From Escherichia coli (GTDB lineage Bacteria > Pseudomonadota > Gammaproteobacteria > Enterobacterales > Enterobacteriaceae), in the NCBI RefSeq assembly GCF_003334305.1, contig NZ_QOWS01000001.1: a stretch of 64,000 nucleotides of DNA; one strand, 5' to 3'. Both the position numbers and the translations under genes were made by a program. Under the pieces are notes generated by a model. The model saw only the letters and a list, made by a program, of their open reading frames with translations, ran no database searches and was not told where the DNA came from. Shown here piece after piece: positions 4,026 through 50,061 of the stretch (the first letter of the stretch is position 1; every line of letters starts with the position of its first letter).

Positions 4026-4976
4026 ATGCGTGTGTTACTGGCTCCGATGGAGGGTGTGCTTGACTCTCTGGTGCGTGAATTGCTGACCGAAGTTAACGAC
4101 TACGATCTGTGCATCACCGAGTTTGTCCGCGTGGTGGATCAACTGCTGCCGGTAAAAGTCTTTCATCGCATTTGCCCTGAGCTACAAAACGCCAGCCGGA
4201 CACCATCTGGTACGCTGGTGCGCGTGCAGTTGTTAGGTCAGTTCCCACAATGGCTGGCAGAGAACGCCGCCCGTGCGGTGGAGTTAGGTTCCTGGGGCGT
4301 GGATCTCAATTGCGGCTGCCCGTCGAAAACGGTTAACGGTAGCGGCGGCGGCGCGACGTTACTCAAAGATCCTGAACTCATCTACCAGGGTGCAAAAGCG
4401 ATGCGTGAAGCTGTACCAGCGCATTTGCCCGTCAGCGTAAAAGTGCGTCTGGGCTGGGACAGCGGTGAGAAGAAATTTGAAATCGCCGATGCGGTTCAAC
4501 AGGCTGGCGCTACGGAGCTGGTGGTGCATGGACGGACAAAAGAGCAGGGTTACCGCGCGGAGCATATTGACTGGCAGGCGATTGGCGAGATTCGCCAGCG
4601 GCTGAATATTCCGGTGATTGCCAACGGCGAAATCTGGGACTGGCAGAGCGCGCAACAATGCATTGCGATCAGCGGCTGCGACGCAGTGATGATTGGTCGC
4701 GGGGCGCTCAATATTCCCAACCTGAGCCGGGTAGTAAAATATAACGAACCGCGAATGCCGTGGCCGGAGGTGGTTGCTTTGCTGCAAAAATATACCCGTC
4801 TGGAAAAGCAGGGCGATACCGGGTTATATCACGTTGCGCGGATTAAACAGTGGTTGAGTTATTTGCGTAAAAAATACGATGAAGCAACGGAATTATTTCA
4901 GCATGTTCGGGTGTTGAATAATTCCCCTGATATTGCAAGGGCTATTCAGGCAATTGATATCGATAAGCTGCGATAA
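4026..4976 (+). CDS. dusC: tRNA-dihydrouridine synthase C
   Basis: TIM-barrel Dus family; start taken at [10 protein letters not shown]; recognised. Confidence 0.9.
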
Positions 4977-5084
4977 TAGTGGAATCGCAGTTTATCAGAG
5001 ACAATGAATCGCTTATTCAGCTTCATCATCTTGTTGCGCTCCTTTCATGAGCTAAGCCACATATTGCCACTGGCGCAAGGAGCG

Positions 5085-5290
5085 CGCAGGGGGAGGACAA
5101 TCGCCTCCTCCCCCTGCACCCCCGGGCTCTGGCGAACAAAATCGCCGCTGCGCGGTACCTTCAGCTTATCCCCTTCGTCTACCGGGTCGGGCGCGAGGTA
5201 ACGTCCTTGTAAGACGCGCCCTCAGCCCACATCCATGTGGGCTGCCCCGGCCTTCGGGGAACGCTTCAGCGATTTTGACGCCACCAACAC
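5085..5290. other. GC-rich intergenic element with several strong hairpins, identity unknown
   Basis: Inverted repeats gggggagg...cctccccc (5088..5116), gcccacatccatgtgggc (5224..5241), ccccggccttcgggg (5245..5259); no plausible ORF. Confidence 0.4.
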
Positions 5291-5363
5291 CGGAGCTGTT
5301 TGCAAATCAAGTACACAAAATATCTAGTTCCTGACCTGACAACTTATATGCCATATCTGATTT

Positions 5364-5447
5364 TTAAAATATCATCTTAAATACGCCAGTCACCACCAGT
5401 AGCCCAATCAGGAAAATAATCAATACAGCCCAGAGTATAATTTTCAT
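5364..5447 (-). CDS. yohP: Small membrane protein YohP (27 aa)
   Basis: Hand-translated MKIILWAVLIIFLIGLLVVTGVFKMIF with TAA stop; not in the ORF track (below length cut-off). Confidence 0.8.
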   Translation of the reverse strand: MKIILWAVLIIFLIGLLVVTGVFKMIF

Positions 5448-5670
5448 TGGCGTTCCTTTATTTGTGAGTGCTGAATAAGTATAGGAAAAAACGAAGCCCT
5501 TTGCCGTTATCCATAAACGATTAAGATAAATCGGAAGATATCATTTACTTAGTCTATATTTTTCTGGATATGTCGTTTTATTGCTACTGATGTATTGCCA
5601 CGCGAAACTAAAAAATATATCGCAACACACGGTAATCTCCGCGCACCTTTTCTTACCTGATTATTCCCCC

Positions 5671-7107
5671 ATGAATCGTGATTCCTTTTATCCAGCCATC
5701 GCCTGTTTTCCGCTGTTACTGATGCTGGCCGGGTGTGCACCTATGCATGAAACCCGCCAGGCGTTAAGCCAGCAAACGCCTGCTGCACAAGTTGACACCG
5801 CATTACCCACGGCGCTGAAAAATGGTTGGCCAGACAGCCAATGGTGGCTGGAGTATCACGATAATCAACTCACTTCCTTAATTAACAATGCACTACAGAA
5901 CGCACCGGATATGCAGGTGGCTGAACAGCGCATTCAGCTAGCTGAAGCCCAGGCGAAGGCAATTGCTACTCAGGATGGTCCGCAGATCGACTTTTCTGCG
6001 GATATGGAGCGGCAAAAAATGTCGGCAGAAGGCTTAATGGGGCCGTTTGCTCTGAACGATCCGGCCGCAGGTACGACCGGTCCGTGGTACACCAACGGAA
6101 CTTTTGGCTTAACGGCGGGCTGGCATCTCGATATCTGGGGAAAGAATCGGGCGGAGGTTACTGCCCGCCTGGGTACGGTTAAAGCACGGGCGGCGGAACG
6201 CGAGCAAACCCGCCAATTGCTGGCTGGCAGCGTAGCCCGCCTGTACTGGGAGTGGCAAACCCAGGCGGCGTTAAACACGGTCTTGCAGCAAATAGAAAAA
6301 GAGCAGAACACCATTATCGCGACCGATCGCCAGCTATATCAGAACGGGATTACTTCTTCAGTTGAAGGTGTGGAAACCGATATTAATGCCAGCAAAACCC
6401 GGCAGCAGCTCAACGATGTCGCGGGGAAAATGAAAATTATTGAGGCACGGTTAAGCGCACTTACAAATAACCAGACAAAGTCATTGAAGCTTAAACCGGT
6501 CGCGTTGCCGAAAGTGGCAAGCCAGCTTCCTGATGAACTGGGGTACTCCTTACTGGCCCGGCGGGCAGATTTGCAGGCGGCGCACTGGTACGTTGAGTCA
6601 TCGCTAAGCACCATTGATGCGGCAAAAGCGGCATTTTATCCTGACATCAACCTGATGGCCTTCCTGCAACAGGATGCGTTGCACTTAAGCGATCTGTTCC
6701 GTCATTCCGCGCAGCAAATGGGCGTTACGGCAGGCCTGACGCTACCCATTTTCGATAGTGGTCGTCTTAACGCCAATCTCGATATCGCAAAAGCCGAAAG
6801 CAACTTGTCTATCGCCAGCTACAACAAAGCGGTGGTTGAAGCGGTGAATGACGTGGCGCGGGCAGCCAGTCAGGTTCAGACACTTGCGGAGAAAAACCAG
6901 CATCAGGCGCAAATTGAGCGCGATGCCTTGCGTGTGGTAGGTCTTGCGCAGGCGCGCTTTAACGCGGGCATCATTGCTGGTTCCCGCGTCAGCGAAGCCA
7001 GAATCCCCGCGCTGCGTGAGCGGGCCAATGGCCTGTTATTGCAAGGGCAGTGGCTGGATGCTTCCATTCAACTCACTGGTGCGTTGGGCGGGGGTTACAA
7101 ACGCTGA
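5671..7107 (+). CDS. mdtQ: Outer-membrane efflux lipoprotein, TolC/OprM (NodT) family, apparently intact
   Basis: Lipoprotein signal peptide ending LLMLAGC (lipobox), 478 aa uninterrupted; recognised as yohG/mdtQ. Confidence 0.85.
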   Translation: MNRDSFYPAIACFPLLLMLAGCAPMHETRQALSQQTPAAQVDTALPTALKNGWPDSQWWLEYHDNQLTSLINNALQNAPDMQVAEQRIQLAEAQAKAIATQDGPQIDFSADMERQKMSAEGLMGPFALNDPAAGTTGPWYTNGTFGLTAGWHLDIWGKNRAEVTARLGTVKARAAEREQTRQLLAGSVARLYWEWQTQAALNTVLQQIEKEQNTIIATDRQLYQNGITSSVEGVETDINASKTRQQLNDVAGKMKIIEARLSALTNNQTKSLKLKPVALPKVASQLPDELGYSLLARRADLQAAHWYVESSLSTIDAAKAAFYPDINLMAFLQQDALHLSDLFRHSAQQMGVTAGLTLPIFDSGRLNANLDIAKAESNLSIASYNKAVVEAVNDVARAASQVQTLAEKNQHQAQIERDALRVVGLAQARFNAGIIAGSRVSEARIPALRERANGLLLQGQWLDASIQLTGALGGGYKR

Positions 7108-8050: not shown

Positions 8051-8629
8051 TTACGCCTGATGATCCGGCTTTTTCTTCCCGCGCCGTTTCAGCCACCAGC
8101 GCACGCCCACCACCAGAACCACGACCAGAATCAACCAGACCCAGTGCTTCAAATGCTGGTCGAGATTGTGCAACCACGGCGCAATCACCTGACCACCAGC
8201 GTAACCAATAGTGGTAAAAATCAACGCCCAGGCAAATGCGCCGAGAATATTCAGCGGCAGAAAGATTTTCGGCGGCAGCTGGCTGGCACCAATCAGCGTC
8301 GGGCCAATCACCCGAAAGCCATACATAAAGCGCGTACCAATGACAAACAGATACGGATGGCGTTGGATAAGTTTCTGCGCCCGCTCAATTTTATCCTGAT
8401 GTTTCGAGAAACGGCGTAACAGCTTGCCGCCAAACCGCCGCCCGCACAGATAAAGCACCTGGTCGCCAATCATGCCGCCAAGCGCCACAGAAAGTACCAC
8501 CAGCGGGAACTTTAATAGCCCCTGATGTGCCGCAACGCCTCCCAGCAAAGTCACGGTTTCACCTTCCGCCAGGCTACCGATCACCAGCGCGGCATAACCA
8601 TATTGTGAGATGAGTGTATTGAGATCCAT
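8051..8629 (-). CDS. yohD: DedA-family inner-membrane protein YohD
   Basis: 192-aa membrane ORF from MDLNTLISQYGYAAL; recognised. Confidence 0.85.
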   Translation of the reverse strand: MDLNTLISQYGYAALVIGSLAEGETVTLLGGVAAHQGLLKFPLVVLSVALGGMIGDQVLYLCGRRFGGKLLRRFSKHQDKIERAQKLIQRHPYLFVIGTRFMYGFRVIGPTLIGASQLPPKIFLPLNILGAFAWALIFTTIGYAGGQVIAPWLHNLDQHLKHWVWLILVVVLVVGVRWWLKRRGKKKPDHQA

Positions 8630-8798
8630 AGGCCAGTCTGTCTCCCTTTGGTTGCCTGTAAGCATACACCCTGGAAATCATTCACGCTGAAAAAGGACAT
8701 ACATCAGACGGTGCAAATTACATGGATGAACAAAAAATAATCACAAGCTGACTTATACTTGAACTGTCAGGTTCATGAACTCACAACAAGGGGGCGGT

Positions 8799-9386
8799 AT
8801 GAGCCATGTCTGGGGACTGTTTTCCCATCCCGATCGTGAAATGCAGGTGATTAATCGCGAAAACGAAACGATTTCTCACCATTACACCCACCACGTTTTG
8901 CTGATGGCGGCGATTCCGGTGATTTGCGCCTTCATTGGCACTACACAGATTGGCTGGAATTTTGGCGATGGCACTATCCTGAAGTTATCCTGGTTTACCG
9001 GACTGGCGCTGGCTGTCCTGTTTTATGGCGTTATGCTGGCTGGGGTTGCGGTAATGGGGCGGGTCATCTGGTGGATGGCGCGTAATTATCCGCAGCGTCC
9101 GTCACTTGCGCACTGCATGGTCTTCGCGGGCTACGTTGCAACTCCGCTGTTTTTAAGCGGTCTGGTGGCGCTTTATCCGCTGGTCTGGTTGTGTGCGCTG
9201 GTCGGCACGGTGGCGCTGTTTTACACCGGCTACCTGCTTTACCTTGGTATTCCGAGCTTCCTGAATATCAACAAAGAGGAAGGCCTTAGCTTCTCTAGTT
9301 CGACGCTGGCGATTGGCGTGCTGGTACTGGAAGTGCTGCTCGCCCTAACCGTTATACTATGGGGCTACGGTTATCGTTTGTTCTAG
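8799..9386 (+). CDS. yohC: Yip1-family inner-membrane protein YohC
   Basis: 195-aa polytopic membrane ORF starting MSHVWGLFSHPD. Confidence 0.8.
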   Translation: MSHVWGLFSHPDREMQVINRENETISHHYTHHVLLMAAIPVICAFIGTTQIGWNFGDGTILKLSWFTGLALAVLFYGVMLAGVAVMGRVIWWMARNYPQRPSLAHCMVFAGYVATPLFLSGLVALYPLVWLCALVGTVALFYTGYLLYLGIPSFLNINKEEGLSFSSSTLAIGVLVLEVLLALTVILWGYGYRLF

Positions 9387-9559
9387 AAAGTTCTTTGACG
9401 TTGCATTGCTGGCGTAAATGTCAGCAATGCAGCATTTCCTCACGATTCTCCTTTGACGATCGCACTTTTTGCTCGTTATGATGGCGTCGCTAGCCTCAGT
9501 AAATCCTTACTCCGGCGGTGCGCAACCCGTGCGCGTGAACCACTATCTGAATGCTCATC

Positions 9560-29941: not shown

Positions 29942-30028
29942 AAATAAAAAAACCTGCTGGTGAGGCAGGTTCTTTTATTTACTATTTTCAGGCCTAACAC
30001 CACAGCCTGTGCAACATCGTGTTCCAAC
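29942..30028 (-). ncRNA. orzP: Orz-like antisense sRNA (type I antitoxin), copy proximal to yehL; approximate ends
   Basis: Minus-strand sigma70 promoter (-35 ttgcaa 30058..30063, -10 tataat = plus attata 30035..30040); intrinsic terminator 29951..29971 plus U-run; 5' end complementary to zor leader at 30175..30194. Confidence 0.55.
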
Positions 30029-30551: not shown

Positions 30552-30636
30552 AAATAAAAAAACCTGCTGGTGAGGCAGGTTCTTTTATTTACTACAGTGA
30601 CGCTAACTTGCTGATTGTGCAACATTTCGTACCAAC
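30552..30636 (-). ncRNA. orzO: Orz-like antisense sRNA (type I antitoxin), copy proximal to yehK; approximate ends
   Basis: Same architecture as copy 1: -35 ttgcaa 30666..30671, minus -10 at 30643..30648, terminator 30561..30581; 5' end complementary to leader 30785..30802. Confidence 0.55.
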
Positions 30637-48038: not shown

Positions 48039-48066
48039 TCCCCCTCATGATGAGGGGGCTTTTTTT
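48039..48066. terminator. Bidirectional intrinsic terminator between convergent yehA and rcnB
   Basis: cccctcatgatgaggggg flanked by A-run and T-run. Confidence 0.7.
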
Positions 48067-48403
48067 AGCGATGATAAAAAATCTCACCGTCGTAGGCTTT
48101 AATGATTTTACCGTCGGTGTCGCTGATCAACACGTACGCGCCACCCATATAGGTCCAGTGCGTCCCGGCATCAGGCGCGGGCAGGTTACGTAACTGCCAC
48201 TGCTTAATGTTGTACTCATCGGTGCGGTACATCTCTGGGACGGTATCGCCTGGTTTGAAATGCTTAAAGTCAGCAATGAAACTGCTTAACTCATACTTAG
48301 AAATTCCCGAGGTATTGGTCGAACCCGCGGTGGCTGGTGCGGCCCAGGCGGCACTGGTAACCAGCAAAAGCGCACCCAGCAACATCTTATTTTTAATGGT
48401 CAT
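48065..48403 (-). CDS. rcnB: Periplasmic Ni/Co homeostasis protein RcnB
   Basis: 112 aa from MTIKNKMLLGALLLVTSAAWA; recognised. Confidence 0.85.
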   Translation of the reverse strand: MTIKNKMLLGALLLVTSAAWAAPATAGSTNTSGISKYELSSFIADFKHFKPGDTVPEMYRTDEYNIKQWQLRNLPAPDAGTHWTYMGGAYVLISDTDGKIIKAYDGEIFYHR

Positions 48404-48621: not shown

Positions 48622-49446
48622 TTATCGCATTATGCCCATGAAGCCATGTACGCCCATATACACACCAACTAAGCCAATCAACAGACTGGAAAAATAGGGG
48701 GCGCGTTTAGCGAGAGTGTTAAATCCGCTCCAGCGTTTTGCGACCTGCTGAACGCTGATTGCTGCGCCAACGCCTACGGTGACCAGCGTTAACGCCAGGC
48801 CAATGCTGAAACTGACGACCAGTGTTGCGCCCAGTGTCAGGGCTTTCAACTGAATGCAAATCAACAGCACGGTAATTGCTGCCGGGCAGGGGATAAGGCC
48901 ACCGGTTAAGCCAAATAGCAAAATTTGCCAGTTGGTGACCTCTCTACCATCAAAGCGTCGTTTAATGTCATTGGCATGGGCTCGTGCATGGGCATCCTGA
49001 TACTCGCCATGTTCGTGATGGTGATGATGTCCATGGTCGTGGTGATCTTCGTGATCGTGGTGATGATGTTCATGATCATACTCGTGCATATTCTCCAGCC
49101 AGTTGCGTTCGCCGCGCCAGGTACGCCAGAACATCCAGAACGCGGTGCCAATAATGATCACTGCGGAAATCAGCTGGAGCCACGGTTCTGCTGATTGAGC
49201 AGTAAAGCGCTTGCTGATCACCATCCCGCCAAAGGCAATTAACCAGACCACTGCGGTATGCGAAATAGTTGCTGCCAGTCCGAGCATCACCGCTTGTTTA
49301 ATGGTGCCTTTGATGGCGATGATAAACGCCGCCATCATCGTTTTTGAGTGCCCTGGTTCCAGGCCATGAAGCGCACCAAGTAAGATGGCGCTGGGGATGA
49401 AGAACCAGGCGTTTCCTTGCTGAAGAAGAGTTGTAAATTCGGTCAT
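48622..49446 (-). CDS. rcnA: Nickel/cobalt efflux permease RcnA
   Basis: Membrane protein with a His-rich loop (HEYDHEHHHHDHEDHHDHGHHHHHEHGEY). Confidence 0.92.
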   Translation of the reverse strand: MTEFTTLLQQGNAWFFIPSAILLGALHGLEPGHSKTMMAAFIIAIKGTIKQAVMLGLAATISHTAVVWLIAFGGMVISKRFTAQSAEPWLQLISAVIIIGTAFWMFWRTWRGERNWLENMHEYDHEHHHHDHEDHHDHGHHHHHEHGEYQDAHARAHANDIKRRFDGREVTNWQILLFGLTGGLIPCPAAITVLLICIQLKALTLGATLVVSFSIGLALTLVTVGVGAAISVQQVAKRWSGFNTLAKRAPYFSSLLIGLVGVYMGVHGFMGIMR

Positions 49447-49483
49447 GATAATAATTCTTAGTATTAATTCGGCAATCTGATTC

Positions 49484-49518
49484 TACTCCCCCCCAGTACC
49501 TGATACTACCCCCCAGTA
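49484..49518. promoter_or_regulatory. Two RcnR operator sites (TACT-G/C tract-AGTA) in the rcnR–rcnA divergent intergenic region
   Basis: tactcccccccagta (49484..49498) and tactaccccccagta (49504..49518). Confidence 0.8.
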
Positions 49519-49566
49519 GATTAATAGTGCTATGATTTTTCATATTCTTGTTAACCAGGTGTTGCC

Positions 49567-49839
49567 ATGTCTCATACAATCCGTGATAAACAGAAACTGA
49601 AAGCGCGTGCCAGTAAGATTCAGGGCCAGGTCGTGGCGCTCAAGAAAATGCTCGACGAGCCGCACGAATGCGCTGCAGTTTTACAACAGATTGCTGCTAT
49701 CCGTGGCGCGGTAAACGGTCTGATGCGGGAAGTGATTAAAGGTCATCTGACGGAACACATCGTTCACCAGGGGGATGAGCTAAAACGTGAAGAAGATCTG
49801 GATGTCGTTCTGAAGGTGCTGGATTCATATATCAAATAA
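49567..49839 (+). CDS. rcnR: Ni/Co-responsive repressor RcnR (CsoR/RcnR family)
   Basis: 90-aa [24 protein letters not shown]...; recognised. Confidence 0.9.
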
Positions 49840-49929: not shown

Positions 49930-50061
49930 ACCAAACGACTCGGGGTGCCCTTCTGCGTGAAGGCTGAGAAATACCCGTATCACCTGATCTGGATAATGCC
50001 AGCGTAGGGAAGTCACGGACCACCAGGTCATTGCTTCTTCACGTTATGGCAGGAGCAAACT
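49930..50061 (+). promoter_or_regulatory. TPP (thiamine pyrophosphate) riboswitch / THI-box in the thiM leader
   Basis: cggggtgcccttctgcgtgaaggctgagaaatacccgtatcacctgatctggataatgccagcgtagggaa matches the THI element consensus, directly upstream of thiM. Confidence 0.85.

Follow-up and report, generated by a model that had tools for sequence, protein, structure and literature searches.

The rcnA-rcnR locus

The window analysed here, a 64-kb stretch of Escherichia coli chromosomal DNA, carries the divergently oriented genes rcnA and rcnR, whose start codons are separated by a gap of 120 bp containing a pair of 15-bp operator sites (Table 1). The rcnR product scores 197 bits against its equivalog model (cutoff 138, E = 4e-59) and is identical to the RefSeq-annotated protein WP_000019944.1. 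It carries the RcnR ligand set of H3, C35, H60 and H64, corresponding to an H-C-H-H pattern in the W-X-Y-Z fingerprint, as well as S2, and the RASK motif occupies residues 14-17. RefSeq annotation of identical DNA also names rcnA. The accessory gene rcnB lies downstream of rcnA; its product matched none of the NCBIfam HMMs, and it has been reported to be co-regulated with rcnA as rcnAB.

Table 1. Features of the rcnB-rcnA-rcnR region, numbered along the window
Feature	Position	Strand	Remarks
rcnB	48065-48403	-	Periplasmic accessory protein gene downstream of rcnA; RefSeq annotation at the homologous position in E. coli strain 503025
rcnA	48622-49446	-	Ni/Co efflux transporter with His-rich loop, the regulated target; NF007454, 559 bits, E = 2e-168
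Candidate rcnA -10 element, TAGAAT	49485-49480	-	Predicted; TA is the end of the site 1 AGTA arm
RcnR operator site 1 (rcnA-proximal)	49484-49498	-	Plus strand TACTCCCCCCCAGTA; minus strand TACTGGGGGGGAGTA, i.e. TACT-G6-N-AGTA with N = G
Spacer, 5 bp	49499-49503	none	Plus strand CCTGA; site centres 20 bp apart, about two helical turns
RcnR operator site 2 (rcnR-proximal)	49504-49518	-	Plus strand TACTACCCCCCAGTA; minus strand TACTGGGGGGTAGTA, i.e. TACT-G6-N-AGTA with N = T
Candidate extended -10 element of the rcnR promoter, TGcTATGAT	49528-49536	+	Predicted; starts 9 nt after site 2
rcnR	49567-49839	+	Ni(II)/Co(II)-responsive repressor, CsoR/RcnR (DUF156) family; NCBIfam equivalog NF011613

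Downstream of rcnR lie thiM and then thiD, with a TPP riboswitch (RF00059, 71 bits, 49931-50027, plus strand) between rcnR and thiM, as expected for a thiMD operon. In E. coli strain 503025, a gene for a tyrosine recombinase/integrase and one for an HNH endonuclease directly follow the riboswitch in thiM's place (4632-6955 of that locus), which suggests that an island has been inserted between the TPP riboswitch and thiMD in this strain.

Two tandem sites in the divergent gap

The operator element as a whole spans 35 bp (49484-49518), beginning 37 bp from the rcnA start codon (ATG at 49446) and ending 48 bp from that of rcnR (ATG at 49567). A sequence-only reading of this DNA had placed two sites, 5 bp apart, at these positions between the divergent rcnA and rcnR starts; direct reading and a pattern search both returned the same coordinates, and the gene models bear out the placement. 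Its description of the sites as TACT-(G/C)6-7-AGTA is correct but for one nuance of notation: site 2 reads TACT-A-C6-AGTA on the plus strand, and its central 7-mer is thus not purely G/C. The A preceding the C6 tract is covered by the published form of the motif, TACT-G6-N-AGTA on the minus strand, so that this formula describes both sites exactly.

Both sites belong to the type-1 class of operators, with C7 and C6 tracts held between TACT and AGTA arms that lie 7 bp apart, and they are arranged in tandem within the divergent gap at a spacing that places both on the same helix face. On the minus strand, each matches TACTGGGGGGNAGTA with no mismatches, and no further sites with up to two mismatches to this sequence were found in the 64-kb window. 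The outer arms of the two sites, together with ATTC/GAAT-like flanks, form an inverted repeat (49472-49487 / 49515-49530). We also noted a direct repeat at 49403-49419 / 49553-49569 (82% identity), which we set aside as probably due to chance.

Could these sites be chance palindromes in an AT-rich intergenic region, without function? A single TACT-N7-AGTA is not very rare: its expectation from base composition is about 0.9 per window. The two sites are the sole matches to this pattern on either strand of the window; dinucleotide-preserving shuffles gave a mean of 0.24 matches, with two or more in 3 of 100. Requiring the G6 tract, however, lowers the composition-based expectation for a single site to about 6e-4 per window, and a tandem pair with such spacing is expected about 3e-12 times per window by the same kind of estimate. 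Identity to a demonstrated operator and conservation across species, described below, bear on this explanation as well.

Identity with the published RcnR operator

When reverse-complemented, the 35-bp element becomes identical to rcnO, an operator part given in the supplement of PMC7105576 as TACTGGGGGGTAGTATCAGGTACTGGGGGGGAGTA, with each site making up one half of the part. Placed after a strong heterologous promoter, rcnO confers RcnR- and cobalt-dependent control and has been used to build a cobalt-inducible circuit in vivo (PMC7105576). The 120-bp intergenic region is also 100% identical to that of E. coli K-12 MG1655, and comparison with the K-12 rcnR-rcnA operator showed the same sequence, position, orientation and flanking genes, with no difference. 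Of 5426 complete E. coli genomes, 5362 carry this intergenic region and 5364 match a 401-bp query spanning it, with rcnA and rcnR annotated.

An operator composed of two copies of TACT-G6-N-AGTA is attributed to Iwig & Chivers (2009, J Mol Biol 393:514) and Blaha et al. (2011, Biochimie 93:434), the latter describing in its title the autoregulation of rcnR through a shared operator. Control of both rcnA and rcnR by RcnR through these two sites is therefore already known, having been published between 2009 and 2011. Our account of the published footprint draws on citing papers, one supplement and sequence identity; within these sources, the comparison with the published RcnR site that the sequence-only reading had proposed gives an exact motif match along with the identity to rcnO. 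According to subsequent work, one RcnR tetramer occupies each type-1 site, with both sharing one face of the DNA; recognition combines contacts to the TACT/AGTA arms with shape readout of an A-form-like G tract, and non-specific contacts with flanking DNA can wrap the DNA (PMC5146963, PMC3902906).

Together with the gene models and the cross-species comparison below, identity to MG1655 and rcnO argues for the assignment originally made from the letters of the window, namely RcnR operators under autoregulated, Ni/Co-responsive control. We consider it almost certain that 49484-49518 is a tandem type-1 RcnR operator common to the divergent rcnA(-rcnB) and rcnR promoters, and we met no evidence against this assignment in our analysis. 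Because the operator is already in use as a synthetic-biology part, the finding adds no new biology. Rather, it shows that a real, experimentally validated operator can be read from raw sequence alone at exact coordinates, which is what the original reading, offered as a sanity check on whether regulatory sites are legible in this window, had set out to establish. The comparisons also yield small testable details: a fixed asymmetry between the sites, a spacing of 5 or 6 bp, third sites and conserved -10 positions.

Conservation of the tandem pair across species

We searched species-representative genomes, 100,044 in all, for TACTGGGGGGNAGTA-N(1-25)-TACTGGGGGGNAGTA, orienting the resulting loci like the window and identifying their neighbouring genes by tblastn. 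The tandem pattern was found at 78 loci, in as many genomes, mostly from Enterobacterales but also from four Vibrio, three Shewanella and one Chromobacterium. At all 75 loci with enough flanking DNA, an rcnR homologue (58-100% identity) lies 44-98 bp to the right of the pattern. A divergent rcnA lies 31-40 bp to the left in 68 loci, and in three more only a C-terminal HSP of rcnA was scored. Because the sample is seeded by a pattern, these counts are a lower bound and give no fraction of rcnR genes that carry the pair.

In this sample, the arms and the lengths of the tracts are dictated by the search pattern, leaving only the N positions, the spacer and the flanks as informative. The spacer takes 25 different 5-mer sequences, almost always ending in A at its 3′ end, and its length is 5 bp at 61 loci and 6 bp at another 16; the single 24-bp spacer belongs to a locus that really has three sites. 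Across loci, columns in the flanks carry 0.3-0.5 bits on average. By contrast, the N positions are nearly invariant: on the plus strand, the position corresponding to 49488 in site 1 is C in 77 of 78 loci, and that corresponding to 49508 in site 2 is A in all 78. As a comparison of sequences, the scan is an independent confirmation of the operator assignment.

These data return us to the possibility of functionless chance palindromes. The pair is kept upstream of rcnR in 78 species while its spacer and flanks diverge, and the same DNA has demonstrated operator function as rcnO. Conservation and rcnO identity effectively refute this explanation, to which we assign a vanishingly small probability.

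The scan also bears on whether the sites might be recognised mainly by a different regulator, for instance FrmR or some other DUF156 protein. Of the paralogues of RcnR, FrmR is the closest: the rcnR product scores 77 bits against the FrmR model, and the FrmR structure 5LCY is its nearest match (E = 6e-16) in the PDB copy searched, which held no structure of RcnR. (A 2024 review noted that the absence of an RcnR structure limits the understanding of its allosteric mechanism.) The sites of FrmR, too, are type-1 and in tandem, with AT-rich arms enclosing a G/C tract. The FrmR operator at Pfrm, however, has ATAC/GTAT arms and 9-bp GC-rich tracts, and the TACT-G6-N-AGTA pair co-occurs with rcnR wherever neighbouring genes could be assessed. 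Recognition mainly by a protein other than RcnR thus appears highly improbable.

Comparison with related operators

Among the closest known systems is the rcnRA operator-promoter of Salmonella Typhimurium (rcnRAPro; Osman et al. 2016, PMC5016687). It also contains two TACT...AGTA sites with C tracts and a 5-bp spacer, but differs in having TAGAA as the spacer and A-C7 rather than A-C6 in site 2, as printed in the supplement of PMC5016687. A probe with this two-site layout is bound by two tetramers of Salmonella RcnR with a K_DNA of ~1.5e-7 M, and binding weakens to at least 5.9e-6 M with Ni (at least 40-fold) and to at least 1.5e-5 M with Co (at least 100-fold) (PMC5016687). This validated A-C7 site, which our exact search pattern would miss, shows that the motif is not absolutely rigid.

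Other type-1 operators of the CsoR/RcnR (DUF156) family include those of FrmR at Pfrm in E. coli and Salmonella and of DmeR-like regulators next to dmeF. Unlike the RcnR operator, they have other arms and tract lengths, as in the E. coli FrmR operator described above, and respond to formaldehyde or other metals. The type-2 CsoR operators, exemplified by Streptomyces lividans CsoR, share with RcnR the same protein fold, A-form G tracts and GTA dyads. Unlike the RcnR sites, they carry a pair of short, interrupted G/C tracts, their AT-rich repeats are ~11 bp apart, and two tetramers bind one site, as opposed to one per type-1 site for RcnR.

Sequence variation within E. coli

Of 5353 E. coli genomes, 4429 share an identical 55-bp core around the operator, and a further 897 differ in it at one or two positions. 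The variants we sampled, from complete genomes aligned to 49440-49572, comprised a substitution in the flank and two changes of tract length: strain 23CRST025 has C8 in site 1, and strain ET625 has A-C5 in site 2. In 23CRST025, rcnA is annotated as frameshifted, which suggests a homopolymer assembly error. The C8 and A-C5 tracts may just as well be artefacts of long-read assembly or sequencing as products of true slippage.

Tract-length variants of this kind raise the possibility that the C/G tracts are slippage-prone promoter-spacing elements, acting as a phase-variation switch to which protein binding is secondary. Apart from the two E. coli variants, each seen in one genome, the A-C7 tract in site 2 of Salmonella Typhimurium fits such behaviour, as does the placement of the tracts between promoter elements. 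Several lines of evidence argue against it. First, the core is unchanged in the large majority of E. coli genomes, and the genome with the C8 tract is the one that bears signs of an assembly error. Second, at 6-7 nt, the tracts are short for slippage to be efficient. Third, the arms play no part in slippage and show the same degree of conservation as the tracts. Finally, the Salmonella A-C7 operator is still bound by two RcnR tetramers. A slippage switch is accordingly an extremely unlikely account of these tracts.

Candidate promoters and a model for shared repression

Returning to the operator as a target of RcnR, we considered how its two sites might be positioned relative to the divergent promoters. 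The candidate -10 element of rcnA (Table 1) is supported by the cross-species sample: TAnnnT occurs at exactly this position in 77 of 77 loci, with its final T (T6), which the search pattern leaves unconstrained, invariant against a flank mean of 0.48 bits per column. For rcnR, the candidate extended -10 element corresponds to a TGnTAnnnT sequence that 67 of the 78 loci have beyond site 2, at an offset of 9 nt in 42 and of 26-27 nt in 21. Third sites, inserted between site 2 and the -10 element, were seen within the group with the longer offset. In most of the other loci, a TAnnnT that lacks the TG lies closer by one base. The -35 elements of both candidate promoters are poor.

A consensus promoter scanner reported neither candidate -10 element. 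We rejected both of its own hits, a minus-strand -10 at 49453-49448, which ends one base before the rcnA ATG, and a plus-strand -10 at 49575-49580, which falls inside the rcnR coding sequence. Our literature search found no primer-extension or transcription start site data for rcnA or rcnR.

Placing these candidates beside the published behaviour of RcnR suggests a simple model. In the absence of metal, apo-RcnR would occupy the operator with one tetramer per site, both on one DNA face, repressing both divergent promoters, as the literature describes. Site 1 probably overlaps the -10 element of the rcnA promoter, in keeping with the conservation of that element across species. Site 2 would lie over the -35/spacer region of both promoters, with the predicted extended -10 of the rcnR promoter just outside it. 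In this arrangement, bound tetramers would block RNA polymerase at both promoters, which would explain how a single shared operator represses rcnA and rcnR jointly. Binding of Ni(II) or Co(II) at His3, Cys35, His60 and His64 would then weaken DNA affinity, as reported in the literature, and derepress both the efflux pump and the repressor gene.

Site asymmetry and third sites

The constancy of the N positions means that the two sites differ in a fixed way on the minus strand, with G7 in the site next to rcnA and G6-T in the site next to rcnR, although the published motif writes this position as N. This asymmetry may reflect differing affinities of the sites or a role in a promoter -35 element. 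On the minus strand, N of site 2 is the first T of a weak -35-like sequence, TAGTAT, that lies 17 bp upstream of the candidate rcnA -10 element.

In some lineages, a third RcnR-like site is found between site 2 and rcnR. Five loci of a Kosakonia group have a third site, aACTCCCCCCCAGTt, 7 bp beyond site 2. Among Enterobacter, Klebsiella and Lelliottia, 13 loci with a 6-bp spacer, whose RcnR is ~62% identical, carry a sequence of opposite polarity, TACTC(A/C)GGGGGAGTA, 6 bp beyond site 2. Three sites in direct orientation occur in Vibrio diabolicus, and the tract of the middle site is C5. Loci with a third site have the candidate rcnR -10 element moved by ~17 bp.

In the three Shewanella loci, the tandem operator lies upstream of rcnR, yet in place of rcnA the divergent gene codes for a membrane protein of 123 aa from the uncharacterised PRK09272 family (NF006751, 187 bits; for example, 8542-8913 on the minus strand of locus L031), for which the only Pfam similarity is a weak one to GlpM. 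This PRK09272-family gene may be an RcnR-controlled gene of unknown function.

Plasmid-borne and distant homologues

An rcnR gene whose product is 92% identical to RcnR, together with an intact tandem operator, occurs on large conjugative resistance plasmids in Enterobacter, Salmonella, Citrobacter and E. coli. Upstream of rcnR on an IncHI2 plasmid, both 15-mers are exact, while the spacer (AAATA) and the flanks differ from those of the window. On IncHI2-type plasmids, the divergent efflux gene is truncated (annotated as incomplete, without its C-terminus), and in one case (locus L002) it lies near IS26.

More distant homologues are preceded by single sites. For a Ralstonia megaplasmid homologue (62% identity), the site is perfect, TACTCCCCCCTAGTA; upstream of a dmeF-linked regulator (49%), the single type-1 site is TACTATACCCCAGTA, and upstream of a Cupriavidus homologue (41%) it is ATAGTATACCCCCCTATACTAT.

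A Fur-box-like block at the rcnA start and RNA elements elsewhere in the window

A further palindrome, TGATAATAATTCTTA, spans 49446-49460 (plus strand) and overlaps the ribosome-binding site (RBS) and start codon of rcnA. The 7-1-7 consensus for Fur is TGATAATnATTATCA. The palindrome agrees with this consensus at 12 of 14 positions, and the window contains two matches with up to two mismatches, against an expectation of 0.32; 4 of 100 shuffles reach two. Among 75 rcnR-rcnA loci from other species, 39 agree with the consensus at 10 or more of the 14 positions in the corresponding place, although the RBS and start codon could explain this conservation. The title of Koch et al. (2007) refers to a link between Ni/Co and iron homeostasis for RcnRA, and the Fur-like palindrome could be the physical basis of this reported link. 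Whether the constant site asymmetry, the lineage-specific third sites and the Fur-like box at the rcnA start amount to regulatory detail not described before is doubtful, though there is some chance that they do.

Elsewhere in the window, the OrzO-P antitoxin RNA family (RF02083) is represented by a tandem pair on the minus strand, at 29946-30021 (100 bits) and 30556-30629 (89 bits), which indicates a duplicated type I toxin-antitoxin locus. A Peptidase-S11 RNA motif (RF03039, 73 bits) at 9475-9555 on the plus strand is a candidate cis-regulatory element.
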